A stretch of DNA of 64,000 nt from an uncultured Bacilli bacterium (GTDB lineage: Bacteria > Bacillota_I > Bacilli_A > RF39 > UBA660), in assembly GCA_947630575.1 (NCBI GenBank), contig CANRIB010000003.1, positions 15,670 through 79,669 of the forward strand, written 5' to 3'. The position numbers and the translations under genes were made by a program. The notes beneath the pieces are model-generated. The model was given only the letters and a program-made list of their open reading frames with translations. It was not told the origin of the DNA and did not search any database. Shown here piece by piece: positions 4,534 through 59,589 of the stretch; within the stretch, counting starts at the first letter, position 1, and each line of letters begins with the position of its first letter.

Positions 4534-4701
4534 AGTTATCACCTGATTTAATTTTCTCATTAAACAAATTCCAAAAAAATATAACCGTTAAAACTATGAT
4601 ATTTTTCTTGACTTTTGACATTTGCTAGATTATAATTTAAGCATAAGTTAGAAATTTCTAATATGATTGATAATAAGTTAATTATAAAGAAGGGAAGATT
4701 A

Positions 4702-10213: not shown

Positions 10214-10228
10214 GAAGGTGTTAGTACT

Positions 10229-18086: not shown

Positions 18087-18923
18087 ATGCAAGATTTTAA
18101 GTTTTTAAATGATGATTTAACATTTAAATATGTTTTTTCTCATGCTTATATTTTAGAATATTTTATTAATTTATTTTTAGATTATATTAATTCTAATTTA
18201 AAGTTTAATATTACTAATGTAGAAGCACAAACATATATTATGCCTAATAATAAAAGTATTAGTTTATATTATGGAGATTTAGTAGCTAATTTATCTAATG
18301 GAACTATAATATCTTTAGAGATGTATAAAAATAAATTTACTTTAAATGATTATAATAAAAGTTATGCTTATAAATGTCGCATATTTGCTAATCAGTTAAA
18401 GAAAGTAAAAAAGAATAAAATAAATTATAAAGATATGAAGCAAGTAATAAGTTTAAATTTAATAAGAGGAAACTTTAATAAAATTAATAATAATATTATA
18501 AATTGTTATAGATTTAAAAATGATAAATTAAATGGAATCATAAAAGATAACACCATTATATATTTAGTAAGATTTGACATAGTAGAAAAAATAGAATATA
18601 ATGAGAATGAACATAAATTTATAACCCTTTTAAGGTTAATAAATGGAGAAAACATCAATGATTTAAAGAAGTATGCGAATGGAGATGAGATAATGGAAGA
18701 TATAATAGAATATGTATTTGAATGGAATAAAGAATCAGCCAAAAATGGCTTAGAAAAACTAATAGAAGATAGAAGTAATGAAGCAGCTTCTAAAGCCGAA
18801 AATAAAGGCCGAAATCAAGAAAAATTTACGATAGCTAAAAATATGTTAGAATTAGATATGTCAGTTGATAATATACATAAAGCAACAGGTTTATCTAAAA
18901 AAGAAATTTTAAGTCTAAAATAG
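18087..18923 (+). CDS. Rpn-family / PD-(D/E)XK nuclease-family putative transposase (paralog 1)
   Basis: N-terminal LNDDLTFKYVFSH and a GD...SLEMYK nuclease-like core, with a C-terminal HTH-like ATGLSKKEI. It is a paralog of 24960..25760. Confidence 0.7.
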   Translation: MQDFKFLNDDLTFKYVFSHAYILEYFINLFLDYINSNLKFNITNVEAQTYIMPNNKSISLYYGDLVANLSNGTIISLEMYKNKFTLNDYNKSYAYKCRIFANQLKKVKKNKINYKDMKQVISLNLIRGNFNKINNNIINCYRFKNDKLNGIIKDNTIIYLVRFDIVEKIEYNENEHKFITLLRLINGENINDLKKYANGDEIMEDIIEYVFEWNKESAKNGLEKLIEDRSNEAASKAENKGRNQEKFTIAKNMLELDMSVDNIHKATGLSKKEILSLK

Positions 18924-24959: not shown

Positions 24960-25760
24960 ATGAACTACAAAACATTAAAAGATGATCTAACATTTAAATA
25001 TGTTTTTTCTCATGAAGATATCCTAAAAGATTTTATTGATTCTTTTTTAAATTTTATGGGTCTAAATTATAAAGCTACTCTAACTAATGTTAAAGTTCAA
25101 GATTATATGTTACCTAATAAAGAAAAAGTTAAAGGGTTTTTTGGTGATATAGTCGTAACTTTAAATAATAGTTATATAGTATCATTAGAAATGTATAAGA
25201 AAAATTTCTCTAAAAGAGAATATAAAAAGAGTTTAAGTTATTTACATAAACTAAGTATAGAACAAATGAAGCCTGGCGAAAAGAATTATGAAAAGATAAA
25301 AAAGGTAATAGGAATAAGTTTTATGCAAGGAAACTTTAGAAGAATAAATAAAGAAATAGTAAATAGTTATAGTTTTAGAGAAGAGATAACAGAAAAAGTA
25401 ATAGATGAAGGAGATATAGAATTATACTTAGTAAGATATGATTTAGTACCAAAAAGAAGAACTAAAAAAGAAAAAAGATTTATAAAATGGTTAAGAATGA
25501 TAAATGCCAAAGACATAGAAGAACTAGAAAAAATAGGGAAAGGAGATAAAATAATGGAAAATTCAATTAGAGTAGTAAAAGAATGGTTAGAAGATAGTGC
25601 CAAACATGGATTAGAAAGATATATAGATGATGTTAAATTTGAAGCTACCGAAAATGAAAAAATAAATATAGCGAAAAACATGCTTAATAAAAACATGGAT
25701 ATAAAAGACATTATTGAAATAACAGGTTTATCTAAAAAACAAATTATGCATTTAAATTAA
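24960..25760 (+). CDS. Rpn-family / PD-(D/E)XK nuclease-family putative transposase (paralog 2)
   Basis: Contains LKDDLTFKYVFSH, GDIVV...SLEMYK and a C-terminal ITGLSKKQI. It is a paralog of 18087..18923. Confidence 0.7.
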   Translation: MNYKTLKDDLTFKYVFSHEDILKDFIDSFLNFMGLNYKATLTNVKVQDYMLPNKEKVKGFFGDIVVTLNNSYIVSLEMYKKNFSKREYKKSLSYLHKLSIEQMKPGEKNYEKIKKVIGISFMQGNFRRINKEIVNSYSFREEITEKVIDEGDIELYLVRYDLVPKRRTKKEKRFIKWLRMINAKDIEELEKIGKGDKIMENSIRVVKEWLEDSAKHGLERYIDDVKFEATENEKINIAKNMLNKNMDIKDIIEITGLSKKQIMHLN

Positions 25761-27449: not shown

Positions 27450-28883
27450 ATGAAGAAAAAAGAAAAAAAGTATGGTTTACTTAAAGGAGTCGTAATATTA
27501 GTTCTTATAACTTTAATTCTTTCATGGGTAATTCCAAGTGGTGAATTTGCTGCCAGTGGTTTCGCAAGTGATGGAGTTCCAACAAGAATAGGTTTAAACA
27601 ATTTAGTCTGGCTAATTTATTATGGCTTATATTTTAGTATTGATAAAATCATCATGTTATTAGTTATCGGTGGTTTATATGGAGTTCTTGGTAAAATTAA
27701 GGGATATAATAAACTAGTTACCAACATTGCCTCTAAACTAAAAAAACATAAAAAAGTAACAGTAATATTATTCTCTATTATTATTGCTGCCTTAACAAGC
27801 GTTTTAACTCAGACCTTTGTAGTAATAATATTCATTCCATTTATTGTAGCTATATTAAAAAGAATGAATCTCGACAAACTAACTATTTTAGCCACAACTT
27901 TTGGTTCTATTATGGTTGGAGTATTAGGAGCAACATATGGAACTGAAGGTTTACTATATTTAAGCGAATACATGATAACTGGTGAACAAACAGTTGGGGA
28001 TGTTATTCACATGGGCTTATTAGTTCGTGCTGGTATTTTAGCTATAGGTTTAGTACTATTCAATTTCTTTACTATAGTTCATATGGATAAAGTAAAAAAC
28101 AAAGAAGAAAGTGCTGAAATGTTTGAAATCGAAGAAACAGAAGACACTAAAAAAGCTTATCGTATTCCAATTATTATTTTAGGAATTATAACTTTTGTTA
28201 TAGTTATATTAGCATTTATTAATTGGAATAATAATTTTGGCTTAACTATATTTGAAGATTTCCATGATGAAGTATTTAATATTAAACTTGGTAAGGATTT
28301 CTATATTTTTAAAGATTTATTAGGCGCTAATATGGATGCACTTGGAGCTTGGGATTTATTTTCAATTACAGGACTCATCTTATTATTTACTGGTATTTTA
28401 GCAATATGCTATCGTGTAAAATTTGATGAATTAGTTGAAGGATATATAAATGGTATTAAAAAGATGTTAAAACCAATTGCTTGTGTTTTTGGGGCTTTCA
28501 CATTATTAGTAGTAGTTTATATGTCACCATATGTAGCAACAATAATAAATAAACTCTTTACTTTAACAGATGGGTTTAATTTAGCAACAATGAGTTTATC
28601 TGCTCTCTTAAGTAATATTCTTCATACTGATTTAGGATATACAGGCTATGTACTAGGCTCATATTTAACAACTGAATATATTGATTATATTAATCCAATA
28701 TATATAATATTTACATCTCTATATGGCTTTGTTCAATTCTTTATTCCAACAAGTATTATTTTAGGTATTGGTTTAACATCATTAAATGTTAAATATACTG
28801 ATTGGTTAAAACATATTTGGAAATTCTTAGTTGGAATGTTAATTTGCTTATTAATAATCTTCATATTAATAACAATATTATAG
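27450..28883 (+). CDS. YfcC-family (DcuC-like) polytopic membrane transporter
   Basis: 477-aa multi-TM protein. The N-terminus ...VILVLITLILSWVIPSGEF is typical of YfcC-like carriers. A GGAGGG RBS is present. Confidence 0.6.
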   Translation: MKKKEKKYGLLKGVVILVLITLILSWVIPSGEFAASGFASDGVPTRIGLNNLVWLIYYGLYFSIDKIIMLLVIGGLYGVLGKIKGYNKLVTNIASKLKKHKKVTVILFSIIIAALTSVLTQTFVVIIFIPFIVAILKRMNLDKLTILATTFGSIMVGVLGATYGTEGLLYLSEYMITGEQTVGDVIHMGLLVRAGILAIGLVLFNFFTIVHMDKVKNKEESAEMFEIEETEDTKKAYRIPIIILGIITFVIVILAFINWNNNFGLTIFEDFHDEVFNIKLGKDFYIFKDLLGANMDALGAWDLFSITGLILLFTGILAICYRVKFDELVEGYINGIKKMLKPIACVFGAFTLLVVVYMSPYVATIINKLFTLTDGFNLATMSLSALLSNILHTDLGYTGYVLGSYLTTEYIDYINPIYIIFTSLYGFVQFFIPTSIILGIGLTSLNVKYTDWLKHIWKFLVGMLICLLIIFILITIL

Positions 28884-28920
28884 GAAGCTTAAAGCTTCTT
28901 TTTTGTTGCAATAAAGGGAC

Positions 28921-28949
28921 TTGAAAAAATGTTTGCATCATGCTATAAT
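28921..28949 (+). promoter_or_regulatory. sigma-A-type promoter of the Tad-like operon
   Basis: TTGAAA (28921-28926), 17 nt, then extended -10 TGcTATAAT (28941-28949). It lies just after the terminator of the upstream transporter gene (gaagctt/aagcttc + T6, 28884-28905). Confidence 0.6.
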
Positions 28950-28973
28950 TAGAAGCAGAGGTTGGTGTATACT

Positions 28974-29738
28974 ATGAAAAATTTTAAAGTATTAGCTTTA
29001 ATATTATTCATGCTTTTTGTTAGTAAGCCCGTAGTAAATGCCGCATGTTCCGTTGAAGAGAACAGTAAACTATACAAAGAAGCCAGTAATGTTAAAGTAA
29101 GTTATGAAGTGCTTCAGCGCGATGCATCCAATGATCCAGGATTCAATTTCCCTGATGGAATGACTGATGAACAAATCGAAAATTTTACTTGGATGGAAGA
29201 TTATTTTCGGATTTACATTTCAAATTTAACAACAAATTTATATGTAGAAGTTAAAAATAATGTAACTGATGAAGTAAAAACATATAGCTATAGTGATTCT
29301 AATAATGGAATTGTATCATTTGACCAAATGGACAAAGAGCAAATATATAATTACACCGTTACTGTATATAGTTCCATTAATACTAATTGTGAGGGTACAA
29401 AATTATATACCGCTTACACATCAACACCTATGTTCAACTATGTAAGTGATGAGCCCGCTTGTGAAGGTGTCGAAGAATTTTATGCTTGTAAAAAATGGTT
29501 ATCCGTTCCAATTACTAATATGGAAACATTATATGACCGCATTGAGAAATATAAAGAAGGTTTAATTGACAAAGATGGTGAAGAAAAAGAAGAACCATCA
29601 AAAGAAGAAGAAAAGGGATTTAAAAAATTTGTTAAAGAGAATAAAGCAATTATAATTGCTACAACAGTATGCATTGTAGCAGTAGGGGGATTAGTTACAG
29701 TGATAATAGTAAAAAAGCAAAGGAGTAAGAGAATATGA
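28974..29738 (+). CDS. exported type I membrane protein (signal peptide + C-terminal TM), first gene of the Tad-like operon
   Basis: Signal peptide MKNFKVLALILFMLFVSKPVVNA|AC, six further Cys, a C-terminal E/K-rich linker and TM AIIIATTVCIVAVGGLVTVIIV+KKQRSKR. Its stop overlaps the next start (ATGA). Confidence 0.65.
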   Translation: MKNFKVLALILFMLFVSKPVVNAACSVEENSKLYKEASNVKVSYEVLQRDASNDPGFNFPDGMTDEQIENFTWMEDYFRIYISNLTTNLYVEVKNNVTDEVKTYSYSDSNNGIVSFDQMDKEQIYNYTVTVYSSINTNCEGTKLYTAYTSTPMFNYVSDEPACEGVEEFYACKKWLSVPITNMETLYDRIEKYKEGLIDKDGEEKEEPSKEEEKGFKKFVKENKAIIIATTVCIVAVGGLVTVIIVKKQRSKRI

Positions 29739-32700
29739 AAAAAATCTTAAAAAATGCTAATTTATTCATTATTACAATACTTTCATTATTTATCTTTAAT
29801 GTAAAAGCAAATGCTGCTTGTAAAGTAAATACCAAAGATTGCGATCCAAGAAGCGCAGAAAGATATGGCAATATTTATATTACTGGTGAAGATCCAGTAG
29901 GATGGATAAGAAATACTTATGATTCACAAACAACTAAAACCAATAAACATTTTGTTGGTTCTGGAAATCCTCATGTTCAAAAAGAAAATCACTGGAAGCT
30001 AAGTCAAATGGGAGTTACTAAACATGGAAAACATGGATCAGGTGTATTTTCTGTTTATGCCGATCAATATAATTTTCCATTATATTGTTTTGATGCTCAT
30101 AAAATAGGTTATCAATCATTATTTGCCAAAAGATTTTTAATAAATGGTTATGAAAATACAAGCCATGTTGAAATATTTGACCATGCCTTAATGGCAATTT
30201 TAACTTCAGGAAATAACACAATTGCTAATAGTGTTTCATCAGTTAAAAATTATTGGGCTAAATTATTAGCTTTAAGAGGTGTAATAGCCACTTTTGGATA
30301 TTTATCAAGACAAACATCAAGTACATATGATACTGATATATTCTTAGTTTATGGAACTGCCTACAATTGGTTAACTGAAAATAATAATGCGTTATATAAT
30401 AAATTACACGCAGTGGATTCCCATATTGCTAAATTATCAGACATGAATACATATCGAACTTATGGTGGCAGTACACATTACTTTAGTGGTGGACAAGTTA
30501 GTGCAGCTAAAAGCTTATTTATTAAAGGAATTAATGCGGCGATTGACTTTGCCAAAAATCCAACTAAAAAAGTTAGTGCTCAAAATGTAAGTACTCCAAG
30601 TTATGGTGAAAAAGTAGAAAGTCTTAGTCCATCAGGAGATACTATTGTTAGCCAAGATATAGTCCACAAAATTAAAATTAACAATTTAACTAATAGTGCA
30701 GCAACATTAATAGTTAATGATCCTACCTATACAGGTACAGTGCCAAAAGGAATAACAACTCCTCCAACTGTTACAAAAATAAAAATAGGGGATAAAGAAC
30801 TAGATCATTCTGCAGTTGGTCAAAATTTAATTCCATTATCTGGAGCTGATTTCAGTAAAGAAGTTGTTGTTGAAATCACTGTTCATATTGAAGGAAGAAA
30901 AGAAGCTTTTGTAGATACTTCCAATTTAGGAGCAATTTCTCCAGGAGAAGTATTAAAGTGTGGTCAACAACCTATCGAATACGAATTAAAAGTTAAATAT
31001 GATAATAAAGAAAAAAGAGATTATTCTGATTGGGTTGGTGTTGTATGGCAATCAGTTGAGTCAAATTCTCAACGTTATGTAGCAATATATCCAAACGGAA
31101 ATAAAACAGATAGTACTGAACAAGAATTAATTTCTAAAGGTTCAACTGAATTAATTCCACAGTGTGATTGCAAAGATTTAGAAAAATCATGTGAAGTTGA
31201 AGCTAAAGAAACAGGAAACTTAGATGGCCCAGCATGTCAAGAATTAAAAGATTCTAACTGTGGTGATTGTAGTATAATTGAAATTGCATGTGATGTATTA
31301 AAAGATCCAGAAGCTTGTGACGAAAAATATAAATCTTGCGATGTAACATGTAAAACAGAAGTAGATGAATTTGATTGTTGTGATTATTCTGGTGATACAG
31401 CCCATTTAATTGTTGAAGGGGAAAATATACCAGTTAATATTAACGGCCCAGAAGAATCATATGGTTGTTTCGTCGTTGGCGTAGATAAACAAAAAGAAGT
31501 ATCAATTCAAAGTAAAAGTTATGAACAATCTGGATATTCTAATGTAGAAGGTGTTAAAGATGATACCGAAAAAAATACTTATACTTTAACTAAAAATAAA
31601 TATTGTTTAATTTCCTGCAAAGAAGATTATGCAATGTCTCTTCCAACAGCAAGACAAGTAAATGCTGGAAGATACTTTACTTTCAAAGCTCAAGTAAATG
31701 GTACTAAAACATGCTACTCTAATACAATTGATGTGAAACAATTTAATGTAGATATAGGTGATATTGCAAAAGAAATGGAGACGGCTTTAAATAAATATAT
31801 TACTTATAAATATGTTTATGACAATGCTTCAAATTTACTTGACGAACATAAATATAAAGGCGCAAGAACACCTTTACTTGGATGTGGATGTATACCTGAT
31901 AGTTCAAAAGATAAATCAGGAGTAAGTACTAATATACGAGTACCACACTATCAATTTACAATTTCCGAACCAAGTGTAAAATCTATATCAATTCAATACA
32001 CAGCAGCATCAAATTCAAGCTATACATATAATTATACAAATGATTATATTGCAAATTCTATTGAAGATGTTAAGAACTATATCGAAAAAGGGCAATCAGG
32101 AACAACTGCTATTACAGATGGAGGATACTCTTATCAATGTGATAGTCCATGTGGTAAAAATAGTACTACATTAGGAGATAATGCCCATGCTGGAAACCCT
32201 GAATTAGTTAAAGCTAGTCTTAAATATTACAGAGATTATTGGAAAAGCATATTTAATAAATTACAAGATAGATATAATGAACTATTAAAAGAATATGACG
32301 ATTGTTCCAATGATTCTTGGTCAAGTCATTTAAATTATGACCCTAAAATTTATTATAATTATGAAGAGAATTATTTAACAGAATTCTATAATAATTATGG
32401 CACTATGGTTGAATCAAGAGAAGAAGAAAAAACAAATAGTTGGTATTGTCAACCAGGAAAATTAAATGGTGAATATGAAAAAGAAAATTGTAGTTCTAAT
32501 ACAACAAATAGAAATCTACAAAGTATTAAGAGCATATCTTGTAATCTAGATTCAGGGAATATTGACACTATGTGTTCTAATCCAACAAAAAATTTACCTT
32601 ACATTGAATATATAAGTAAATCATCACAAATAACTGCTAATTATAAACCGGAAGTACTATTCTACAATGTTCATCCAAGTGGTGAAATTCTAGACAAAGA

Positions 32701-33643
32701 AAAAGCAAGTAGTAGAGATGATGTTACTCCAGTTACTGATAAAGAAGGAAATGGTGGTTTACCAGTATCCTTAAATACTGAACGAGGAATTTACAAATAT
32801 ACAATTAATATTCAAAAACTTGGTGAATTCTATAGTGATGATTGTAAAAATTCAAATTGTGAATTAGGTCGTTTAATTGGTGGTGGCGAAAATGCTGTTA
32901 TCAATGAAAAAGATTACGAAAAGATTGTTAAAAACAATATTGGTTCATATTCATGTGCATACTTAGTAAATATTAAAAATACTGAAGGTTGGGTATGTGA
33001 CTTTGATCAAGAATGTACAGACGATTGTATATCTGATTGTATAGGACCATATTGTGAACAAGAAATTTGTACAGGAGTTAATTGTATATCTGATTGTGTA
33101 GGTATTGGATGTATATATGATGTAGATGCTGGAAATTCATTTACTCAAAGAACTGTTAGCTTAAGTACATTATTCCCTAATGGAACAACATCTCCAAACT
33201 GGGATCGTTCAAAACCTAAAGCTCAAACTACAATTGATGAGATAGAAGGATTACAAAATAGTGTTTATGAACAACAACCAATATTAAGTATAAAACTTAC
33301 AGGTACTGCTGCTCGTGATATTCAAAAATATAATGCTGAAAATATTCCAGATGGTGATAATAACAGCGGTTCTTGGAACTTAGATTTAGAAACTCTAGGG
33401 GGATATTCAAATCATACTTTAGACTGTTATGCTTTAGGCGATTACAAAGAAGTTGCATGTTATAGTACATTTATTGATGATGTATTAGCAAACAAGTATG
33501 GTAAAATTGTTAATTCTAATAGTTTAATTGCCAATAGTAATTACCGAACTCGTGGTGATGTTAATGGTTCTAAAGATGAATACTTCGAAAAATGGACTGG
33601 AACTGTATCTGAAACTGATATGGTAGGACCAGCTTGGAAGTAA
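29735..33643 (+). CDS. giant exported Cys-rich protein (1302 aa)
   Basis: Signal peptide MKKILKNANLFIITILSLFIFNVKANA|AC. Two dense Cys clusters lie at about nt 31160-31390 and 32990-33125. No TM or sorting signal was seen at the C-terminus. Confidence 0.7.
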   Translation: MKKILKNANLFIITILSLFIFNVKANAACKVNTKDCDPRSAERYGNIYITGEDPVGWIRNTYDSQTTKTNKHFVGSGNPHVQKENHWKLSQMGVTKHGKHGSGVFSVYADQYNFPLYCFDAHKIGYQSLFAKRFLINGYENTSHVEIFDHALMAILTSGNNTIANSVSSVKNYWAKLLALRGVIATFGYLSRQTSSTYDTDIFLVYGTAYNWLTENNNALYNKLHAVDSHIAKLSDMNTYRTYGGSTHYFSGGQVSAAKSLFIKGINAAIDFAKNPTKKVSAQNVSTPSYGEKVESLSPSGDTIVSQDIVHKIKINNLTNSAATLIVNDPTYTGTVPKGITTPPTVTKIKIGDKELDHSAVGQNLIPLSGADFSKEVVVEITVHIEGRKEAFVDTSNLGAISPGEVLKCGQQPIEYELKVKYDNKEKRDYSDWVGVVWQSVESNSQRYVAIYPNGNKTDSTEQELISKGSTELIPQCDCKDLEKSCEVEAKETGNLDGPACQELKDSNCGDCSIIEIACDVLKDPEACDEKYKSCDVTCKTEVDEFDCCDYSGDTAHLIVEGENIPVNINGPEESYGCFVVGVDKQKEVSIQSKSYEQSGYSNVEGVKDDTEKNTYTLTKNKYCLISCKEDYAMSLPTARQVNAGRYFTFKAQVNGTKTCYSNTIDVKQFNVDIGDIAKEMETALNKYITYKYVYDNASNLLDEHKYKGARTPLLGCGCIPDSSKDKSGVSTNIRVPHYQFTISEPSVKSISIQYTAASNSSYTYNYTNDYIANSIEDVKNYIEKGQSGTTAITDGGYSYQCDSPCGKNSTTLGDNAHAGNPELVKASLKYYRDYWKSIFNKLQDRYNELLKEYDDCSNDSWSSHLNYDPKIYYNYEENYLTEFYNNYGTMVESREEEKTNSWYCQPGKLNGEYEKENCSSNTTNRNLQSIKSISCNLDSGNIDTMCSNPTKNLPYIEYISKSSQITANYKPEVLFYNVHPSGEILDKEKASSRDDVTPVTDKEGNGGLPVSLNTERGIYKYTINIQKLGEFYSDDCKNSNCELGRLIGGGENAVINEKDYEKIVKNNIGSYSCAYLVNIKNTEGWVCDFDQECTDDCISDCIGPYCEQEICTGVNCISDCVGIGCIYDVDAGNSFTQRTVSLSTLFPNGTTSPNWDRSKPKAQTTIDEIEGLQNSVYEQQPILSIKLTGTAARDIQKYNAENIPDGDNNSGSWNLDLETLGGYSNHTLDCYALGDYKEVACYSTFIDDVLANKYGKIVNSNSLIANSNYRTRGDVNGSKDEYFEKWTGTVSETDMVGPAWK

Positions 33644-33663
33644 TAGGAAAGGAGTTTTAAAAT

Positions 33664-34074
33664 ATGTCAAGTTCTTATTGGGGTTACTGGTTAGTTGTTT
33701 TAGGCGTTGCTATTGTTGGACTTATTACAGTAGTAAACGGTATAACAACTACCACAACCCAAGATTATTTAAGTATAAAAGAAATAACTGATGCCTCAAT
33801 GTTAGAATCTGTAGACTACGGTTATTATAGAGATTACAACGAAGTTAGAATCAATAAAGAAAAGTTTATGGAAGTCTTTATTAGAAGACTTTCTCAAACA
33901 ATGCAACTACAAGATGAATACGAAGTTAATTTTTATGGAATTTATGAAGCACCTCCAAAAGTAAGTGTAGAAATAAAGAGTTCAACTGGCTCCACAGCTA
34001 TGGCTGCTGGCGGAATGGATGTAATAACTAGATATAATGGCATACTTCAAGTTCATTCACAAGATGGAAAATAG
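33664..34074 (+). CDS. small N-terminally anchored protein (136 aa), possible minor pilin/pseudopilin-like component
   Basis: Single N-terminal hydrophobic segment (YWGYWLVVLGVAIVGLITVVNG) then a Thr run. It sits immediately upstream of the CpaB-like gene. No Flp or TadE consensus is visible. Confidence 0.4.
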   Translation: MSSSYWGYWLVVLGVAIVGLITVVNGITTTTTQDYLSIKEITDASMLESVDYGYYRDYNEVRINKEKFMEVFIRRLSQTMQLQDEYEVNFYGIYEAPPKVSVEIKSSTGSTAMAAGGMDVITRYNGILQVHSQDGK

Positions 34075-34083
34075 GAGGATAAA

Positions 34084-34890
34084 ATGGGAAATATTATAAC
34101 AACACTAAAAAGATTTTTAGCCAACAAAAATACTGTTACAATTATTGGTGTGTTGTTAGGCTTAGTGGTACTTTTTATAGGATATAATTATCGTGTAAAT
34201 AACGCAGTAGAAACGCAAGTAATTCCATATGCAACAAGAACTATTACTGCTACTTCAGAAATTACTAAAGATGCAGTAAGTACTATGGAAGTACTTCGTT
34301 CTACAGTTAAAGATAATACTGCAATAATTTCAAATATCAACTCAGTTTTAAATACTAACGAAACATATTGTGCTTCAGATCGAAGCAATATTCCAGCTGG
34401 TAGTTTCTTCTATACTGAACAAGTAATTCGTTGTGAAGATGTTGCTAATAATGCTCTAAAAAGAATGCCAGACGACTATAGAGCCGTTAATTTACCAGTA
34501 GATTTACAAGACACATACGGAAATTCTATGTATCCTGGAGATTTTATTGATATTTATGCTAAGATGGACATAGATGGAAAATTATTTTATGGTGAATTTA
34601 TTACTAAATTGCCAATCTTAGATGTTCGTGATAGCAATGGTCGTAGTGTATTCTATGGCAATAATCAAAATACTACTCCTGCCTTATTATTATTTGCTTG
34701 CCCTAAGGAATTATATGAATTATTAAGTAGTGCTATATTATTAGGAACTAGCAAAGTAGAATTAATACCTGTTCCTGGTAATGCTAGATATACAAGTGAA
34801 GAAGGAGAAACTGAAATTACCAGCGAGTTCATTAGAGACCGTATTGAATACTATCTAATGCATGACCCTGGAAGTACATCAATAGAATAA
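34084..34890 (+). CDS. CpaB/RcpC-like (SAF-domain) pilus assembly protein
   Basis: N-terminal TM (VTIIGVLLGLVVLFIGY) is followed by VIPYATRTITATSEITKDAVSTMEV, which resembles the SAF domain of CpaB. The gene is directly upstream of the ATPase. Confidence 0.5.
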   Translation: MGNIITTLKRFLANKNTVTIIGVLLGLVVLFIGYNYRVNNAVETQVIPYATRTITATSEITKDAVSTMEVLRSTVKDNTAIISNINSVLNTNETYCASDRSNIPAGSFFYTEQVIRCEDVANNALKRMPDDYRAVNLPVDLQDTYGNSMYPGDFIDIYAKMDIDGKLFYGEFITKLPILDVRDSNGRSVFYGNNQNTTPALLLFACPKELYELLSSAILLGTSKVELIPVPGNARYTSEEGETEITSEFIRDRIEYYLMHDPGSTSIE

Positions 34891-34925
34891 AAATAAAAAA
34901 AGAATAAAATAAAGGAGGTGTTATA

Positions 34926-36017
34926 ATGAATGATGCAATATTTTCCCAAATAGATTTTGGACCTTTAAAAGAATTTATTGACATAGATGATATCACCGAT
35001 ATATCTTACACCAATGGTGGTCAAGTTTGGTTAAAATCATTAACTAAAGGTGTATATCGTGTTGATAGGCCGGAAATAAATAATGCGTTAATTGAAAAAT
35101 TAGCATTTCAATGTTCAAACGTCATGGGAAAAACATTCAATATGGCACATCCTTTTTTAGATGCTGAAAGTACTGAATTGCGTTTAAATTTCGTCCATGA
35201 TTCGATTGCTACTAATGGAATTGCTTTAGTTATTCGTAAAACTCCCGCTAAAATACGTTTAAATAGGGATAAATTATTAAATGAAGAATACGTAAGCGCC
35301 GATTTACTTGATTTTCTTCTTAACTGTGTTCAAGGCCATGCCAATATTATTGTAAGTGGAGAAACTGGTTCAGGTAAAACTGAATTAGTAAAATATTTAG
35401 CTAGTACAACCAAAGAAAATGAGAAAATAATTACTATCGAAGATACTCTAGAACTTCACTTAGATAGAATATTTCCTCATCGGGATATAGTTGCCATGAA
35501 GACTAATAATATTGCTTCCTATTCTGATGTTTTAGTAACATGTATGCGACAAAATCCTATTTGGATTTTATTATCCGAGGTTAGAAGTGCTGAAGCAGTT
35601 ATGGCTGTTCGTAACTCAATTTCATCTGGACACCATATCATATCTACTATTCACTCAGATAAAGCTGCTTTAATTCCTATGCGTATGTACAGTTTAATAG
35701 AATCAAATATTGATGTTGACCAATTTTTAACAACAATTCATCGATATGTTCAAATAGGAATTTATGTAAAAGGGTATATGAGCGAAAAATTAGGTAGATT
35801 TCAAAGAGAAATTATGGAAATATGCGAGTTTTATGTTGATGATAATAATAAACCTCAAGTCAACACCATCTATCAAAAAACATTGGATGGTAATTTTACC
35901 TTAAATAATCCAACTAAATATTTAAAAAATTATTTATCTATTCAAGGGGTTATCTTAGATGATGATTTATTCCATCTAAATAATAACAAAGTTAATAACG
36001 AAATCGAAGCATTATAA
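34926..36017 (+). CDS. CpaF/TadA/VirB11-family secretion ATPase
   Basis: N-terminal ITDISYTNGGQVWL, Walker A GETGSGKT, Asp box IITIEDTLEL, Walker B-like IWILLSEVRSAEA and His box GHHIISTIHSD. Confidence 0.8.
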   Translation: MNDAIFSQIDFGPLKEFIDIDDITDISYTNGGQVWLKSLTKGVYRVDRPEINNALIEKLAFQCSNVMGKTFNMAHPFLDAESTELRLNFVHDSIATNGIALVIRKTPAKIRLNRDKLLNEEYVSADLLDFLLNCVQGHANIIVSGETGSGKTELVKYLASTTKENEKIITIEDTLELHLDRIFPHRDIVAMKTNNIASYSDVLVTCMRQNPIWILLSEVRSAEAVMAVRNSISSGHHIISTIHSDKAALIPMRMYSLIESNIDVDQFLTTIHRYVQIGIYVKGYMSEKLGRFQREIMEICEFYVDDNNKPQVNTIYQKTLDGNFTLNNPTKYLKNYLSIQGVILDDDLFHLNNNKVNNEIEAL

Positions 36018-36030
36018 TAGGAGGTTAATT

Positions 36031-36927
36031 ATGGAATATATAATAGTAGTATTAATTGCTTTATTTATAATTGTATATCGTAAAAATGACGGTACAGATT
36101 CTTTTTATAATTTTGTTAAAAAGCAATTTAATGCAGTATACAAAAGATATGCTCCATACAGTTATCAAACTATAAGTGCTAAAATGAAAGATTTAAAACA
36201 AGAATATACAATTAAAGATTACACTATTCAAGTTGTAGCTATAGGTGGCCTTGCTGGTGCTATAGCATATCTATACTTTTATAGTTTAATTTTAGTTATA
36301 GTCTATGCAGGAATTGCTATAGCGTTTATCCCATATCTAGCATATTTAAGAAGTAAAAGAATTTATAGTGAATATATATTTGAACAAATTCAAGTTTATA
36401 CAACCAATGTAATTATGGAATTTAATACAACTCAAAGTTTTGTTAAATCTCTTGAAGGTGTAAGAGATTCAGGAATTGTTGAAGATCCCGTATTAGAAGA
36501 TATTAAAACAATGATTAATATGTCATATCAAAATGGAACTATTGATGAATCAATCGAATATTTTAATCAAAAATATCCCTATTACATGGTAAAAAATATG
36601 CACCAATTATTTTTACAGATAACTAAAGAGGGTGCTAAAGACTCAGGTGAAGCTCTAGAAAATATGAGTATGGATATTGATGCTTTAGTTGAAGGTGTTT
36701 ATCGTGACCAAATGGATAGAAAACAATTCCATACCAAATTTATAACTTTCGCTTTAGTATTATTTTTATTAGTATTAGTAATGCAAGTTTTATTAGGTAA
36801 AAATAGTTATTTGGAACTTCTAGAATTATGGTATGTTCATATAATTTTACACGCTATAATAATTATAAATTGTTACTTCCTACTTACAGGCGAAAAATAC
36901 TATAATGATGATGTGGGGGTAGAATAA
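36031..36927 (+). CDS. TadB-like (T2SS-F family) inner-membrane platform protein
   Basis: Topology is an N-terminal TM, paired central TMs, a cytoplasmic helical domain of about 130 aa, then C-terminal TMs. It lies directly after the ATPase and is coupled to the next gene. Confidence 0.55.
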   Translation: MEYIIVVLIALFIIVYRKNDGTDSFYNFVKKQFNAVYKRYAPYSYQTISAKMKDLKQEYTIKDYTIQVVAIGGLAGAIAYLYFYSLILVIVYAGIAIAFIPYLAYLRSKRIYSEYIFEQIQVYTTNVIMEFNTTQSFVKSLEGVRDSGIVEDPVLEDIKTMINMSYQNGTIDESIEYFNQKYPYYMVKNMHQLFLQITKEGAKDSGEALENMSMDIDALVEGVYRDQMDRKQFHTKFITFALVLFLLVLVMQVLLGKNSYLELLELWYVHIILHAIIIINCYFLLTGEKYYNDDVGVE

Positions 36928-37715
36928 TGCAAATAGAAATCGCAATAGTTGCACTAATAATATTTTATATTTTAACCAAAAGTGGCAAAATTAGCATAAG
37001 TAAATTAATTGCCGATAATGAAATGTATCTTCGTCGATTAAAAGAAAGCGATTATGATTTTTATGTAAAAGCCAAGTATGGTGATTCTGTAAACCCAGAT
37101 ATTTTATTCAGTAAAAGACTTCAAAATGCTTTAATAGTAATGTTAGTAATATTCTGTTTATTATTAAAAAACATGTCTTATGTTTATTTAATAGTGTGTA
37201 TAGTTGCCGGTTTTGCTTTCTTTAAGCTTGATTACATAAACTTAAAGAATTATTATAAAAGGCATTTGCATGAAATAGATACTATGCTTCCATATTATTT
37301 AAAAGGTTTAGAAATATTGATTCAACATTATACCGTTCCTGTAGCCATTGGTAAATCATTAGAAGATGCTCCCGATATATTCAAAGATGGTCTAAAAGAA
37401 TTAATTAATGAAATTAATGCTGGTAATGATACAATAGAACCATATATGGAATTTGCTAGACAATATCCAGTTCGTGATTCTATGCGTATGATGCGTTTAT
37501 TATATCGTTTAAGTCTTGGACGTCAAGAAAGAAAACAAGAACAATTACTTGCATTTTCTAAAACAATTTCAAATTTACAACAAAAAGCTCGAGAAACAAA
37601 ATATAAAAATAGACTTGATAAAATGGAAAGTAAAACAATGAGTATGCTTGTTACTACTGGCTTAGGTGTTATGATTTTATTAGTTTTAGCGGTTATTACC
37701 ATGATGGGAATATAG
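36927..37715 (+). CDS. TadC-like (T2SS-F family) inner-membrane platform protein
   Basis: Same topology class as the previous gene. ATG overlaps the previous stop (TAATG). Confidence 0.55.
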   Translation: MQIEIAIVALIIFYILTKSGKISISKLIADNEMYLRRLKESDYDFYVKAKYGDSVNPDILFSKRLQNALIVMLVIFCLLLKNMSYVYLIVCIVAGFAFFKLDYINLKNYYKRHLHEIDTMLPYYLKGLEILIQHYTVPVAIGKSLEDAPDIFKDGLKELINEINAGNDTIEPYMEFARQYPVRDSMRMMRLLYRLSLGRQERKQEQLLAFSKTISNLQQKARETKYKNRLDKMESKTMSMLVTTGLGVMILLVLAVITMMGI

Positions 37716-37806
37716 ACAAAATTTGACATAAAAATAGTGAAAAACTTGACAAGTATCGTAAGATAATATAAAATATAGATATAAATAAGAAAGCGAGGGA
37801 ATTAAT

Positions 37807-38160
37807 ATGTTATTAATGGCACCGTCAATATGTACAGATTTAGCCCCAATATGGCAAATTATTGGTTGGGTATTATGGGTATTTAAAATTGCAATTCCAA
37901 TAGTTATAATTGTTTTTGGAATGATTGATTTAGGAAAAGCAGTTGTAGCAAGTAAAGATGATGAAATTAAAAAATCTGTTAAATCTTTAGTAATGCGTGC
38001 TATCGCAGGTATCGTAATATTCTTTATTCCAACAATTGTAGGAGCAATTTTTGGTTTAGTAAGTGAGTTCAAAGATGATCCTGCATATACTAATGAATTT
38101 AAAATATGCCGAACTTGTATTGTTCATCCTGGGGATAGTAATTGTAATCCAAATAATTAA
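37807..38160 (+). CDS. small 2-TM protein, TrbC/VirB2-type pilin-like, with Cys-containing C-terminal tail
   Basis: Has its own promoter: TTGACA, 17 nt, then TAAAAT (about 37746-37774), plus a GAGGGA RBS. Two hydrophobic helices flank the loop GKAVVASKDDEIKKSVKS. Terminator at 38168-38192. Confidence 0.45.
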   Translation: MLLMAPSICTDLAPIWQIIGWVLWVFKIAIPIVIIVFGMIDLGKAVVASKDDEIKKSVKSLVMRAIAGIVIFFIPTIVGAIFGLVSEFKDDPAYTNEFKICRTCIVHPGDSNCNPNN

Positions 38161-38167
38161 AAATAAT

Positions 38168-38192
38168 AATTCCATTTTTGGAATTTTTTTTT
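38168..38192 (+). terminator. intrinsic terminator closing the Tad-like locus
   Basis: aattcca-tttt-tggaatt followed by a T-run. Confidence 0.7.
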
Positions 38193-38726
38193 AAACTAAA
38201 ATATAAATGCTTGCCCAAGAAAATTAGCAAAGTTCCAATTTTTGAAAATTGATATTAAATTTTAATAAAAGTTTTCAATAAAATAAAAATTAGTTTTTCT
38301 TGAATAAAAAGCACATATATAGTGAATAAAATAATTAAAAATATTAAAAACATTTGCCTTTTTTAAAATTAAGTGCTAATATATAAACATCAATTTAAAA
38401 AGAGGAACATATTTAGAACTAAACACTAAGCAATGTTTTTTAAACAAAGTTCTCACTTTTTGAATGATAAATATATAGTTGATTAATGACTTATTTGTCA
38501 TGAATAATTACTTAGTTAGGACATAAGTAATTATTTTTTTAAATAAAAATTAAAGAATAGATATTTTTATTATTTAATTTAAGCTCTAGGAACATTATTT
38601 ATATTTTTAAACTAAATTCTCATCTAATATTTTTCGGGAACTTTAAATAATAAGTAACATTTTTGAAAATTTTGTGCATAAAAATATTGACTTTAAACAT
38701 AATATATACTATACTTTAGTAGTACT

Positions 38727-38802
38727 GCCCAATTAGCTCAGTCGGTAGAGCGCACGGCTGTTAACCGTTAGGTCGTAGGTTCGAGTCCTACATTGGGCGC
38801 CA
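38727..38802 (+). tRNA. tRNA-Asn (GTT anticodon), CCA encoded
   Basis: Cloverleaf readable by eye: acceptor gcccaat/attgggc, D-arm gctcagtcggtagagc, anticodon loop ctGTTaa, T-arm gtaggttcgagtcctac, then gCCA. A TTGACT-17-TATACT promoter lies upstream. Confidence 0.95.
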
Positions 38803-47257: not shown

Positions 47258-47377
47258 AGATATCACTCCTAATAAAATTTTAATAAATTGTATTACTTTT
47301 TGTAAGTTACACAATTTGTGTTACATTTATTCAAAAAATATGTTATAATAATTTTAATTAAAATAGGAGTGATAAAA

Positions 47378-49231
47378 ATGCAAAAAAAAATAAAAAATTT
47401 ATTTATTATTGAAGGAATAGTACTATTAATAATCCTATCTATTGGTATTGGGTATGCTTTTTTATCAACAAGCGATAAACAAGAATTAGCAAATACTTTT
47501 ACAAGTGGATGTTTAAATATAACTATTGAAAATGAATCTTCTTCAATTAATTTAAATAACCAAATACCAATCACAGACATAGAAGGATTAGAAAAAGACA
47601 ATTATAGTTTTAAAATTCATAATACCTGTAAAAATAGTACTAATTATCAAATAAATTTAGAAAGCTTAAATAAAACTGAAAATACTTTAGACATCAAATA
47701 TGTAAAGGTATCAATTTCTAGCAATACCATGGATAACATTATAACTAAATTAAGTGATAATGATAAAGCAGAAAATTTAATTGTAAAATCTTACGATTCA
47801 AGAACTTTGTATTCAGGAATATTAGAAGGCGAAGCAACTAAAGAATTCACTTTAAAAGAATGGATAGATTATGATACAACTGTAGAACAAGGAGCAAGCA
47901 AAACTTATCAATCTCAAATAAATGTAATTGCAGGAACAAACTTTAATGTGTCTAACACACCAGAAATTCAATATACATTTAAAGATGGTTTATATATAGG
48001 AAAAATTACAGGAGATGCAACAACAGGCAAATACTGCATAACTACTGCCAATAAATGTGAACCATCGACAAATTTAGACATAGAAGAAAAAACTGCTAAA
48101 ATAGAAATAGGAAATATAAAAGAAAAAAATATGGTATGCACTTCACTTGGCGATAAAAGAACATATTGTAGTAACCCAAATACAAAAGGAATAGTTATTT
48201 TGGCTACATTAAATGGAGAACCATCAAAAGTTTTTTATGAAAAAGAAAGTGGATATACACCAATAAATATAGAGTGTACTAATGGAGTAAAAGCTTCATT
48301 TGACTACAATAAATGGAGTATAAAAATAGATGCTATACAAGATTCTACAACTTGTACAGTAGATTTTAAAGAAAATATAAATCAAAATTTTAATACATAT
48401 CTTAAAAGTAAACAATGCACTGCAGAAGAAATAAAAACAGATGAAGGAGCAAAAGATTGCTTGGTAAATGAAAATGGATACAGATATGAAGGAAGTGACC
48501 CAAATAATTATGTAATGTTTAATAATGAATTATGGCGTGTAATAGGTGTATTTAATACTACATTAAGTAATGGTTCAACAAAACAAGATTTAGTAAAATT
48601 AATAAGAAATACTCCTATAGGAGCGTTAGCATGGGATGGCAATAGCAAAAATGTATGGAACAATTCAACATTAAAAAAACAATTAAATAGTGGATATTTA
48701 AATAGCCAAGACACAACATGTAATGGATATTCAACAAATATAATGAGAAATTGCAAATTTAGTGCTATAGGAATAAAGGAAGAAGCAAAAGAAAAAATAG
48801 AAGATGTAACATGGAATTTAAGAGGGCCAAGCAATAATAACATAACAATAAATGATATATATAATAGTGAATTAACAGGTGGCATAGCTAAAGATGGAGA
48901 TGCAACCGGAACAGGTAAAATAGGATTAATTTACGCTAGTGATTATGCGTATGCAGCACTTGCAAATAATTGTTCAAGAACAACTTACATAAAATCTTAT
49001 ACAACACAAACATGTAGTGGAAATAATTGGATTTATAATGGTGATGATTTATTTACTATTACGGCTGAAGCAAATCAAAGCGTAAGTGTAATTGTTATTT
49101 TGCCTCCTGGTAGTATAAGCCCTAATTATACCATGCGTACTTTTGGTGTTATTCCATCTGTATATTTAAAATCAAATATACAAGTTAAAGGTGGAATTGG
49201 TACAATAGAAAATCCATATACATTAAATTAA
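47378..49231 (+). CDS. exported protein, paralog family member B1 (TasA/camelysin-like signal region + DUF6273-like C-terminal domain)
   Basis: The N-terminus MQKKIKNLFIIEGIVLLIILSIGIGYAFLSTSDKQELANTFTSGCLNI resembles SipW-dependent signal peptides. The C-terminal half is homologous to 49248..50378 (YRYEGSDPNNYVMFNNELWRVIGVFN, IPSVYLKSN). Confidence 0.7.
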   Translation: MQKKIKNLFIIEGIVLLIILSIGIGYAFLSTSDKQELANTFTSGCLNITIENESSSINLNNQIPITDIEGLEKDNYSFKIHNTCKNSTNYQINLESLNKTENTLDIKYVKVSISSNTMDNIITKLSDNDKAENLIVKSYDSRTLYSGILEGEATKEFTLKEWIDYDTTVEQGASKTYQSQINVIAGTNFNVSNTPEIQYTFKDGLYIGKITGDATTGKYCITTANKCEPSTNLDIEEKTAKIEIGNIKEKNMVCTSLGDKRTYCSNPNTKGIVILATLNGEPSKVFYEKESGYTPINIECTNGVKASFDYNKWSIKIDAIQDSTTCTVDFKENINQNFNTYLKSKQCTAEEIKTDEGAKDCLVNENGYRYEGSDPNNYVMFNNELWRVIGVFNTTLSNGSTKQDLVKLIRNTPIGALAWDGNSKNVWNNSTLKKQLNSGYLNSQDTTCNGYSTNIMRNCKFSAIGIKEEAKEKIEDVTWNLRGPSNNNITINDIYNSELTGGIAKDGDATGTGKIGLIYASDYAYAALANNCSRTTYIKSYTTQTCSGNNWIYNGDDLFTITAEANQSVSVIVILPPGSISPNYTMRTFGVIPSVYLKSNIQVKGGIGTIENPYTLN

Positions 49232-49247: not shown

Positions 49248-50378
49248 ATGAAAAAAAAAATAATAGTATTTTTATTAATAGCAATAGTATTATTTATTAA
49301 TAATAAAGAACAATTTAATAATAATAGTAATAAATATCAAATAAAGACTTATATAGATGGAAAGTTAGCAATGGAATTACCAAAAAGTAGTGATGGAGTT
49401 AAATTTAAAAAAGCATTGTGTACTAATGGAACTGCAACTTTTGATAGTTCAAGCTGGAGATTAGAAGTAAAAGACTTAACAAAAGATGCAATCTGTACAA
49501 TAGAATTTGAGAATAGTACAGAAAAAAATTTTAACGAATTTTTAAAAGGTAAACAGTGCACTGCAGAAGAAATAAAAACAGATGAAGGAGCAAAAGATTG
49601 CTTGGTAAATGAAAATGGATATAGATATGAAGGAAGCGACCCAAATAATTATGTAATGTTTAATAATGAATTATGGCGTGTAATAGGTGTATTTAATACT
49701 ACATTAAGTGATGGTTTAACAAAACAAGATTTAGTAAAATTGATAAGATATGAACCAATAAGTGGCTTAGCATGGAATGCGAATATGAAAAATACGTGGA
49801 ATGATTCTCCATTAAAAAGTAAATTAAATAATGAATATTTAAATAGTCAAGATAGCCTATGTAATATAGGAAAAGAAATTACAAGAAATTGTAAATTTAG
49901 TGCTATAGGAATAAAACAAGGTGCAAAGGAAAAAATAGAAAATGTAACATGGAATTTAAAAGGATATAATAAGTATACATGTGATATTACTGTAGATGTA
50001 ATGTACAATAATGAAAGACTTCTAAATGGTCTAATACCAGAAGGAGGATCAGCAACTGGAACTGGAAAAGTAGGATTGATGTACGCTAGCGATTATGGAT
50101 ATGCAGTGTTGGCAAACAGCTGTAATAGAACAATTAATCTAAATTCTTACAGTAAACAAGAATGTGGAGGAAATAATTGGTTATATAAAGATGGTAATAC
50201 ATATACTCTTGCTCCGTTAGCTGGTTCGTCAAATGTTACGGGTATTGGTTTTGATGGTAGTCTTGCTCAAACATCTTCACATGTTTCATTTGATATTTTA
50301 CCAACAATATATTTAAAATCTAATGTTAAATATATGAGCGGTACTGGAACTTACTTTAATCCATTTATAATTAACTAA
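49248..50378 (+). CDS. exported protein, paralog family member B2
   Basis: N-terminal TM or signal (KKIIVFLLIAIVLFI). It shares near-identical stretches with B1 at both protein and DNA level. GAAGGAA RBS is present. Confidence 0.7.
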   Translation: MKKKIIVFLLIAIVLFINNKEQFNNNSNKYQIKTYIDGKLAMELPKSSDGVKFKKALCTNGTATFDSSSWRLEVKDLTKDAICTIEFENSTEKNFNEFLKGKQCTAEEIKTDEGAKDCLVNENGYRYEGSDPNNYVMFNNELWRVIGVFNTTLSDGLTKQDLVKLIRYEPISGLAWNANMKNTWNDSPLKSKLNNEYLNSQDSLCNIGKEITRNCKFSAIGIKQGAKEKIENVTWNLKGYNKYTCDITVDVMYNNERLLNGLIPEGGSATGTGKVGLMYASDYGYAVLANSCNRTINLNSYSKQECGGNNWLYKDGNTYTLAPLAGSSNVTGIGFDGSLAQTSSHVSFDILPTIYLKSNVKYMSGTGTYFNPFIIN

Positions 50379-54736: not shown

Positions 54737-54781
54737 GTATATCTTTTTTTTATTTGTACAAATTAATAAAAGGTGTTATAT

Positions 54782-58081: not shown

Positions 58082-58291
58082 AGTAAAATAAATTCCTTGT
58101 CTATTATGCTTATCCTTTTTATTAATAGACAAGATTATGGGTTACCTTTACCCAACATAATACATGAATAGAAAGTTTTTACTTTCTGTTCTTTTAATTT
58201 AAAAAATAATTATCTTAAAAATAAACATTAATATTATACTTCGACAAGTTTTTCTAAACTTATTATATATAATATACTAAAGGTGAATTAT

Positions 58292-59516: not shown

Positions 59517-59589
59517 ATTAACACTAATAAATAAAAAAATTATAGTTTTTTTGAAAATTTATAGTATAATTAGATTGAGAGGTGAGTTT

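Follow-up and report, generated by a model that had tools for sequence, protein, structure and literature searches.

The window analysed here, 64,000 nucleotides (nt) of a contig from an uncultured Bacilli bacterium (GCA_947630575.1, CANRIB010000003.1), carries eight plus-strand open reading frames (ORFs), called g1 to g8 (28974-38160; Table 1). With moderate confidence, I interpret them as a functional operon on the chromosome that encodes a Tad-like machine, a member of the type IV filament superfamily. The machine is from a lineage specific to Firmicutes and marked by DUF5411 proteins, and it may build a surface structure, perhaps together with an unlinked type IV secretion system (T4SS). 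The function would be the display of a fibre or an adhesin, possibly in the service of that T4SS. An earlier note made from the sequence alone had proposed a divergent Firmicute Tad-like apparatus, and the profile, fold and synteny evidence for g3 to g7 bears this out. All eight ORFs were confirmed in place. The gene set, the tight spacing (from 4-nt overlaps to gaps of 35 nt) and the flanking genes listed in that note, namely lysS, a CitMHS transporter gene, tRNA-Asn (38727-38802) and addB/addA, were also found as described.

The motor gene is g5. Its product contains the motifs GETGSGKT, IITIEDTLEL and STIHSD, with Walker A, Asp box, Walker B and His box. It has the length of the two-domain VirB11 type, and the N-terminal extension of CpaF is absent. 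Its best matches in the PDB are nearly equal for CpaF, FlaI and VirB11 (63.5, 60 and 57 bits, respectively), and it lies far under the NCBIfam equivalog cut-offs for both TadA (TIGR03819, 102 vs 373) and VirB11 (TIGR02788, 112 vs 250). In a crude neighbour-joining tree, g5 clusters with the ATPases of Firmicute plasmids, apart from proteobacterial CpaF and VirB11. The nearest annotated relatives are Firmicute plasmid ATPases named 'VirB11-like' or CpaF, including one from the conjugation operon of pLS20. By motif and profile, the g5 product is an ATPase of the CpaF/VirB11 clade.

The next two genes encode polytopic proteins, which had been read as TadB and TadC. Neither g6 nor g7 matches the Pfam T2SSF profile directly at E<=0.1, an outcome that the earlier note had counted as refuting its reading; NCBIfam gives nothing either, and their profiles found no match among PDB sequences. 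The assignment survives through remote homology and the predicted fold of g6. The g6 family has few members (214 representatives among 1.84 billion). A distant homologue on a Priestia plasmid (WP_053400277, P0368) reaches 24.8 bits with T2SSF, where the cut-off is 25.2, and its NCBI name is 'type II secretion system F family protein'. In the AlphaFold2 (AF2) model of g6 (pLDDT 87), the cytoplasmic domain superposes on Vibrio cholerae EpsF (2vmb_B) with a TM-score of 0.71 and a root-mean-square deviation of 3.0 A, while the Foldseek E-value against EpsF itself is not significant. With broadened alignments, hhalign related g6 to canonical TadB (80.6%, E 1e-5) and the g7 family to the g6 family (98.3%, E 1e-14). 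Narrow alignments of g6 and g7 revealed no similarity; the paralogy appeared after plasmid and distant members had been added. Because of the T2SSF match of the homologue, the EpsF superposition, the hhalign match to TadB and the g6-g7 paralogy, g6 and g7 are, at the level of remote homology, a TadB/TadC-like paralogous pair.

Upstream of g5 lie genes for two predicted bitopic envelope proteins. In the DUF5411 protein g3, a small domain rich in beta structure is predicted to follow a long helix at the N-terminus. The g3 profile found no match among PDB sequences, and its homologues include proteins of a Priestia plasmid and of pLS20 (gene 36). It is the signature subunit of the Firmicute family, and its modelled architecture could be that of a pilin-like or alignment subunit. 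Some g3 orthologues have long C-terminal extensions of up to ~530 amino acids (aa) (L022 7523-9121). The CpaB/RcpC-like protein g4 stays below threshold in direct searches (TIGR03177, 31 bits with a cut-off of 71, E 1.4e-7; RcpC, 16.5 bits). The hidden Markov model (HMM) of its family recognises the SAF/RcpC protein of the Priestia plasmid at 118 bits, that plasmid protein passes the SAF cut-off, and the pXO1 counterpart is annotated as cpaB. Some lineages have two tandem g4 paralogues (L026 8326-9980; L100 4211-5861).

Similar gene sets were found on plasmids. A Priestia koreensis plasmid has a block encoding an Ig-like surface protein, DUF5411, SAF/RcpC, ParA-like, CpaF/VirB11, T2SSF, g7-like and DUF4320 proteins. 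The genes g3 to g7 are collinear with this block, with HMM E-values of 4e-8, 4e-37, 1e-60, 7e-15 and 7e-17. On pXO1 (L095 5833-11294) there are genes for CpaB, an AAA protein, CpaF/VirB11 and a g6-like product, together with two Flp-like genes in tandem, each for 67 aa; an unannotated g7-like ORF was also noticed at 9869-10612. In pLS20, gene 36 is DUF5411-like (hhalign 56%), and gene 37 ('putative VirB11') matches the HMM of the g5 family with 163 bits. Gene 38 is homologous to g6 (97.9%, E 3e-13), gene 39 shows a weak likeness to g7, and gene 40 encodes DUF4320. The published list of pLS20 genes (PMC8557374) gives the block of genes 36-41 as 'Unknown' save gene 37. In pBatNRS213 of the pLS20 family (L087 8341-13152), genes 36-41 look like an embedded Tad-like module that includes two 47-aa genes with one transmembrane (TM) segment each. 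Related blocks also occur on Enterococcus faecium and Lactococcus plasmids. In all the relatives inspected, the block has a large surface or adhesin protein beside it. By its predicted products, the window locus belongs to this family, in which a DUF5411 protein, a CpaF/VirB11-clade ATPase and a GspF-like platform stand beside a large surface protein.

The surface proteins of the window would be g1 and g2, neither of which matches Pfam or NCBIfam. The g1 protein has an N-terminal signal-peptide-like segment, five Cys residues and a C-terminal TM segment with a basic tail; it is fast-evolving and syntenic in related loci. The listed TTG start at 28962 would yield 258 aa, and the ATG at 28974 is the most plausible start. 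In g2, the N-terminal ~600 aa are clade-specific, while the C-terminal ~700 aa are kept in all lineages. The g2 protein is a candidate adhesin or displayed cargo.

Is the operon conserved as a unit? A scan of species-representative genomes gave at least 516 related loci, and the best 80 were inspected for synteny. These 80 come from uncultured metagenome-assembled genomes of the 'Bacilli', 'Tenericutes' or 'Mycoplasma sp. CAG:776' type. The order of g1 to g7 is kept in all sufficiently long loci among them. In the window's clade, the ratio of nonsynonymous to synonymous substitution rates (dN/dS) is 0.04 for g5, 0.075 for g6 and 0.07 for g7, compared with 0.105 for lysS; it is 0.20 for g8, 0.42 for g1 and 0.66 for g2, with g3 and g4 within 0.20-0.66, all of these being estimates with dS near saturation. 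With ratios of 0.04-0.075 for the motor genes, below that of lysS, the operon is, on these estimates, not decaying: it is functional, with a conserved motor and fast-evolving surface parts. The comparisons also show vertical inheritance of the predicted operon under strong selection. Because the motor genes are under tighter constraint than a tRNA synthetase gene, the operon is probably central to attachment to, or material exchange with, hosts or neighbouring cells.

The last gene, g8, encodes a predicted VirB2-like protein of the T4SS_pilin type. Its own match to PF18895 (E 3.6e-4) is under the cut-off of 26.6 bits. T4SS_pilin matches at E<=0.01 were obtained for 27 of 29 orthologues, g8 itself included (best E 3e-6), and one orthologue also matches T4SS_CagC. 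Relatives of g8 adjoin VirB4 and a gene in the VirB6 position. By profile, g8 is thus classed as VirB2-like. Arrays of three to five genes ending in a g8-type two-TM domain were observed in sister lineages (L059 15507-19951; also L058 and L029 15557-18827). In several array members, a signal peptide is combined with a large N-terminal domain that is variable and exported. The arrays as such are reminiscent of the VirB2 arrays of Patescibacteria.

In sister lineages (ATPase identity <=86%), the operon continues straight after g7 with a pilin-like module. It consists of two or three ~80-aa proteins with a near-invariant MKEATGELN start, a hydrophobic helix and a tail rich in Cys, two paralogous ~155-aa proteins in the TadE position starting with MREAIGGTW, and a protein of 334-358 aa in a position comparable to that of TadZ. 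The label 'pilin-like' refers to the architecture, the position and the common N-terminal signature M-K/R-E-A/S..G. The 334-aa protein was tried as a TadZ candidate and rejected (hhalign 0.5-1.7%). A profile search of a set of 5.8 billion proteins with the small pilin-like family gave 2487 clusters, all unannotated and none tied to the window's clade. In that clade, the module is absent between g7 and g8, within +-10 kb (22 species) and in the 64-kb window. A relocated module was not found either by tblastn and HMM searches of the window, 25 clade loci and the contigs extending the window ends. As judged from these searches, the module has been lost or unlinked in the window's clade; with the sister lineages included, the family as a whole is not pilin-less.

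The N-terminus of g3 changes as well. Where the pilin-like module is present (L026-L082), g3 starts with M[KR][EN][AST]xWGYW (MKES/MRES), whereas in the window's clade, which is without the module, the start (33664-33690) is MQSS/MSSS-YWGYW. This change, a single phylogenetic event, is only a hint that the loss of the module is real. The M-K/R-E signature is common to g3 of the sister lineages, the MKEATGELN proteins and the MREAIGGTW proteins in the TadE position, and it may be a recognition or processing motif.

The earlier note had recognised no Flp pilin, prepilin peptidase or TadZ here, and this holds over a wider range. None of the eight operon products matches Flp in Pfam or NCBIfam (the profile scan did not extend to small ORFs in the rest of the window). 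No polytopic ORF of the window matches the A24 peptidase profile, no GDxK-motif candidate exists in any fetched locus, and none of the three components is recognisable in the window or within +-10 kb of the operon in 22 clade species. On the Priestia plasmid, a 172-aa polytopic protein is encoded upstream of the Tad-like block (L084 1407-1925). Its Asp motifs (ITDVKE ... PGDTKMF) have TadV-like spacing by eye, with no BLAST or Pfam support, and it is a possible divergent prepilin peptidase.

A T4SS was seen by following a pilin-like protein of a sister lineage into a 397-kb scaffold. After the pilin module and the g8-like genes come genes for a ~950-aa polytopic protein in the VirB6 position, a 113-aa VirB3-like protein and a split VirB4 (a part with a TraC-like match, plus AAA_10 and TraG P-loop domains). 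These are followed by a SpoIID-domain hydrolase, a lipoprotein and VirD4 (T4SS-DNA_transf, 190 bits), and then by housekeeping genes. A metagenome scan with the sister-lineage VirB4 gave at least 546 loci, 47 of which had enough upstream sequence. The Tad core, the pilin module and g8-like genes lie directly upstream of the T4SS in 12 of the 47, and the pilin module and g8-like genes in 12 others. Among the 25 families shown, no relaxase or integrase family recurs in the T4SS flanks, which consist of housekeeping genes; singletons beyond these families are possible. By gene content, the T4SS of the sister lineages is chromosomal and of the Gram-positive type, and it is apparently relaxase-less. 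No VirB4/VirD4-type T4SS genes were found in the window or in the loci of its clade.

How might such a machine work? The g5 hexamer would dock on the g6/g7 platform, and ATP hydrolysis would lift small membrane-embedded subunits from the bilayer into a surface fibre. The fibre would cross the wall via a g4/g3 collar and carry or present g2, the variable adhesin. The pilin-like 'MKEATGELN...' and the 'MREAIGGTW...' proteins encoded after g7 would be the subunits in sister lineages. The window's clade has kept only the Tad-like core and one VirB2-like gene, and g3 and/or g8, or unlinked pilins, would be its subunits. There, the core most likely continues to serve contact between cells or with the host, and it may support a T4SS encoded elsewhere.

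Several points weigh against this interpretation. No member of the family has been seen to form a filament, to secrete or to adhere. The window yielded neither a type-IV-pilin-like substrate for the motor to move nor a prepilin peptidase or TadZ. Even in the sister lineages, the module proteins have no match to Pfam, NCBIfam, PDB sequences or Flp profiles. For g3, which the earlier note had put forward for a structure search, the AF2 model is mediocre (pLDDT 64.6) and Foldseek gave no match at E<0.1, so that no pilin fold was matched and none is claimed. The tie of g7 to T2SSF is indirect, via its paralogy with g6, as g7 itself reaches just 15-36% in hhalign against canonical TadB-type proteins. 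The g2 protein has its own Sec-type signal; thus, the machine is not required for g2 to cross the membrane. Finally, g8-like genes alone stand ahead of a stand-alone T4SS in 23 of the 47 loci, and therefore the T4SS and the Tad-like module need not cooperate.

This last count also fits a stand-alone adhesion pilus, or a g2 secretion-and-display system, that is independent of any T4SS, with the adjacency of T4SS genes in relatives being historical only. The g1-g7 core occurs without a pilin module or g8 downstream in L034, L040, L062 and L081. In the inspected stretches of the Priestia plasmid and pXO1, the Tad-like set lies beside S-layer-homology or Ig-like surface proteins with no T4SS gene, and the Tad-like cluster of TANB77 was read as a pilus (PMC11680825). 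On the other hand, g8 has stayed next to g7 throughout the window's clade and is under purifying selection, and the composite with a T4SS recurs in the chromosomes of relatives and in pLS20-type operons. I regard a stand-alone system as possible, if unlikely.

The opposite view makes the motor of this lineage and of pLS20/pXO1-type plasmids an integral part of T4SSs, namely the fibre/adhesin arm of a Gram-positive T4SS, which would handle VirB2-like two-TM subunits (g8) and/or the DUF5411 protein and no classical type IV pilins. On this view, what is called 'VirB11' in Gram-positive conjugation systems would drive a pilus module that is embedded in them and has gone unrecognised, and the arm would have become self-sufficient in the window's clade after pilin loss. 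This seems rather improbable to me.

An apparatus for DNA uptake or exchange is also conceivable, in which the Tad-like fibre captures DNA or a partner cell and passes it to a relaxase-less T4SS elsewhere for DNA import or export in these gut bacteria with small genomes. In Micrococcus luteus and Liberibacter, transformation is reported to depend on Tad pili (PMC8467076, PMC8513845). Sister lineages couple the operon to a T4SS with VirD4 and no recurrent relaxase nearby, and Patescibacteria retain a relaxase-less T4SS with VirB2-like arrays (PMC12102498). However, the locus showed no DNA-binding or ComEC-type component, the window is without the T4SS part, and a fast-evolving giant Cys-rich protein suits adhesion better than DNA binding. 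I give this explanation little credence.

The earlier note had held that an affinity to conjugative T4SSs would make the locus a decayed integrative and conjugative element. In such a remnant, g5 would be a VirB11 and g8 a VirB2 pilin, the remaining transfer genes would have decayed, and the locus itself would be on its way to loss. Part of this affinity was found: the nearest annotated ATPases are the 'VirB11-like' or CpaF/VirB11 proteins of conjugative Firmicute plasmids, g8 is VirB2-like, VirB4, VirD4, the VirB6-position protein and the hydrolase lie directly downstream in sister lineages, and the locus adjoins tRNA-Asn. But a remnant is very improbable, as the ATPase has CpaB-like and GspF/TadB-like partners that VirB11 systems are without, g1-g7 synteny extends across 80 species with graded divergence, the chromosomal operon is under purifying selection with motor genes tighter than lysS, and full T4SS loci too lie amid housekeeping genes with no recurrent relaxase or integrase family. 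As the note had stated, no integrase, relaxase, VirB4 or VirD4 was found within ~10 kb by Pfam matches. Searches of the 64 kb by tblastn with VirB4, VirD4, VirB6-position and VirB3-like queries from relatives gave no match, and no att-like repeats flank the block. The operon had also looked less AT-rich than addBA, which is true (26-32% vs 21-26% G+C). It is no anomaly, since lysS and other core parts of the window, at 2-3 kb and 57-58 kb, reach 31-32% as well. With no att repeats, integrase or relaxase and an unremarkable G+C content, a mobile-element reading was rejected.

The features of the locus and of the T4SSs in sister lineages are collected in Table 1.

Table 1. Predicted features of the Tad-like operon (window positions) and T4SS genes in sister lineages (positions in the named loci).
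Feature	Position	Strand	Basis or description
Terminator-like hairpin, 3' end of CitMHS transporter gene	28882..28900	+	8-bp stem, 3 GC pairs, T-run
Promoter-like site ahead of g1	28921..28949	+	TTGAAA-17-TATAAT, TG-extended, 11/12, intergenic, sigma-70-type
g1, exported protein, 254 aa	28974..29738	+	ATG after AGAGG-like site
g2, exported protein, 1302 aa, 43 Cys, signal-peptide-like N-terminus	29735..33643	+	ORF
g3, DUF5411 protein, 136 aa, one N-terminal TM	33664..34074	+	PF17424, 165 bits
g4, CpaB/RcpC-like bitopic protein, 268 aa, N-terminal TM and SAF/RcpC-type region	34084..34890	+	Profiles
g5, secretion ATPase, CpaF/VirB11/FlaI clade, 363 aa	34926..36017	+	PF00437 (T2SSE), 94 bits
g6, polytopic platform protein, GspF/TadB (T2SSF) superfamily, highly divergent	36031..36927	+	Remote homology, fold
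g7, second polytopic platform protein, g6 paralogue, TadC position	36927..37715	+	hhalign
Second promoter-like site, ahead of g8	37746..37774	+	TTGACA-17-TAAAAT, 11/12 match
g8, VirB2-like (T4SS_pilin), 117 aa, two TM, 4 conserved Cys	37807..38160	+	PF18895, 21 bits
Probable terminator closing the unit, A+T-rich hairpin and T-run	38166..38195	+	By eye from sequence
T4SS after Tad-like operon, sister lineages	L104 5454-17960; L101 11659-18240; L067, L078 3' ends

The hairpin at the end of the CitMHS transporter gene would terminate that gene and thus set the 5' boundary of the unit. Just 3' of it lies the top-scoring plus-strand promoter match of the region. Promoter-like sites exist where the earlier note had placed promoters, ahead of g1 and g8. 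Because this A+T-rich DNA holds no more such matches than shuffled versions of it (68 observed vs 71.6 expected), both sites are supported by position and score only. The closing terminator of the note is visible by eye; its G-C pairs are too few for the terminator scan, which did not report it. Between it and tRNA-Asn lies a stretch of ~500 bp (38200-38700) that is A+T-rich and non-coding, in which neither an Rfam family nor, by tblastn, a remnant of the pilin module was found. The sole match of the Rfam scan of the window was tRNA-Asn. Identical copies of the operon exist on three ENA metagenome contigs.

Other genes of the window were also noticed. There are sporulation-type genes for the GPR germination protease (Peptidase_A25; 54773-55510) and SpoIIP (58283-59206), as well as murG and murB (59551-61543 region); the closest relatives are labelled 'Tenericutes' or 'Mycoplasma sp. 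CAG:776'. From these genes, the organism is taken to be walled, and it may form spores. Paralogous N-terminally anchored exported proteins with no Pfam match are encoded at 4663-6117, 47318-49231, 49248-50378 and 56234-58081. Their N-termini resemble SipW/TasA-type signal peptides by eye ('GYAFLSTSD...TFTSGCLNI'), and a further paralogue lies inside the g8-like array of sister-lineage locus L029 (15976-17103). Two other paralogous ORFs (18087-18923 and 24960-25760), one of them just upstream of lysS, have a common N-terminus (..DDLTFKYVFSH..); they are probably nucleases of the PD-(D/E)XK 'transposase-like' family.

How does the operon compare with known systems? The canonical Tad/Flp (type IVc) system consists of the ATPase CpaF/TadA, the platform proteins TadB and TadC, CpaB/RcpC, TadZ/CpaE, the Flp prepilin (G/XXXXEY), the peptidase TadV and TadE/F. 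The window operon resembles the Tad/Flp systems of Aggregatibacter and Caulobacter in its same-clade ATPase, its two paralogous single-domain platform proteins of predicted GspF type, its CpaB/RcpC-like protein and the order CpaB-ATPase-TadB-TadC. It differs in that Flp, TadV and TadZ are not recognisable and the platform proteins are invisible to the T2SSF profile, while DUF5411, the Cys-rich giant protein and VirB2-like genes are extra. The host of the window is a monoderm, and hence there is no secretin.

In gut Firmicutes, related systems have been predicted. Miller et al. 2022 (PMC9523054) predicted DUF5411 'membrane machinery' operons, all of them uncharacterised, for Roseburia, Ruminococcus and Eubacterium. 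Like the window operon, they encode a CpaF-type ATPase, a PilC/GspF-like protein, DUF5411 and a large surface (internalin-like) protein. In contrast, they have one 434-aa PilC-like platform and other accessory genes; no CpaB-like, Cys-rich g1/g2 or VirB2-like proteins are listed, and the window's lineage is not described in that paper. TANB77 (PMC11680825) also has a divergent Tad-like cluster in uncultured gut Firmicutes with reduced genomes, in which TadB/TadC are recognisable by structure alone and pilin-like proteins without detectable homology follow. The TANB77 cluster differs by its TadZ and CpaE homologues, a fused TadC-TadB and seven pilin-like genes of 143-621 aa, and no DUF5411, VirB2-like gene or T4SS link was reported for it. 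The T4SS of Patescibacteria (PMC12102498) is similar to that of the sister lineages in that it occurs in host-associated lineages, with PF18895-type tandem arrays beside VirB4 and VirB6 and no relaxase nearby. The Patescibacteria genomes are reduced, and a CpaF/TadB/TadC module was not reported with their T4SS. Unlike their arrays, the g8-like arrays of the sister lineages often have large N-terminal exported domains.

A parallel to the composite of the sister lineages is the conjugation operon of pLS20 (genes 34-54, PMC8557374). In both, an adhesin lies upstream of the Tad-like block, small one-TM genes and a two-TM gene lie downstream, and VirD4, VirB6 and VirB4 follow further on. The shared set is an adhesin, a Tad-like block, a two-TM gene, VirD4, VirB6, VirB4 and a hydrolase. 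The blocks of pLS20 and other plasmids differ in being plasmid-borne, pLS20 has a proven conjugation operon with a relaxase, and its block is without a CpaB-like gene. Between the window and the plasmid blocks, identity is ~30% or less, and the window is without linked T4SS genes.

Thus, the kind of system is already known, both as divergent Tad-like machines of gut Firmicutes and as Bacillus plasmid blocks annotated CpaB/CpaF by NCBI. The version found here is new: it is chromosomal, it occurs in every inspected relative of the lineage, it lacks recognisable pilin genes, and a VirB2-like gene is attached to it. Should the Tad-like module be the contact arm of Gram-positive T4SSs, it would offer a testable account of how partners are found, for example during mating in liquid. 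A report on pLS20 describes conjugation as dependent on fluid conditions; the tie of this dependence to the Tad-like module is my own inference. The present work ties together three subjects that tend to be studied separately: the Tad-like clusters of gut Firmicutes, the unexplained 'VirB11-like' block on plasmids of the pLS20 type, and T4SSs that are without a relaxase and have VirB2-like arrays.

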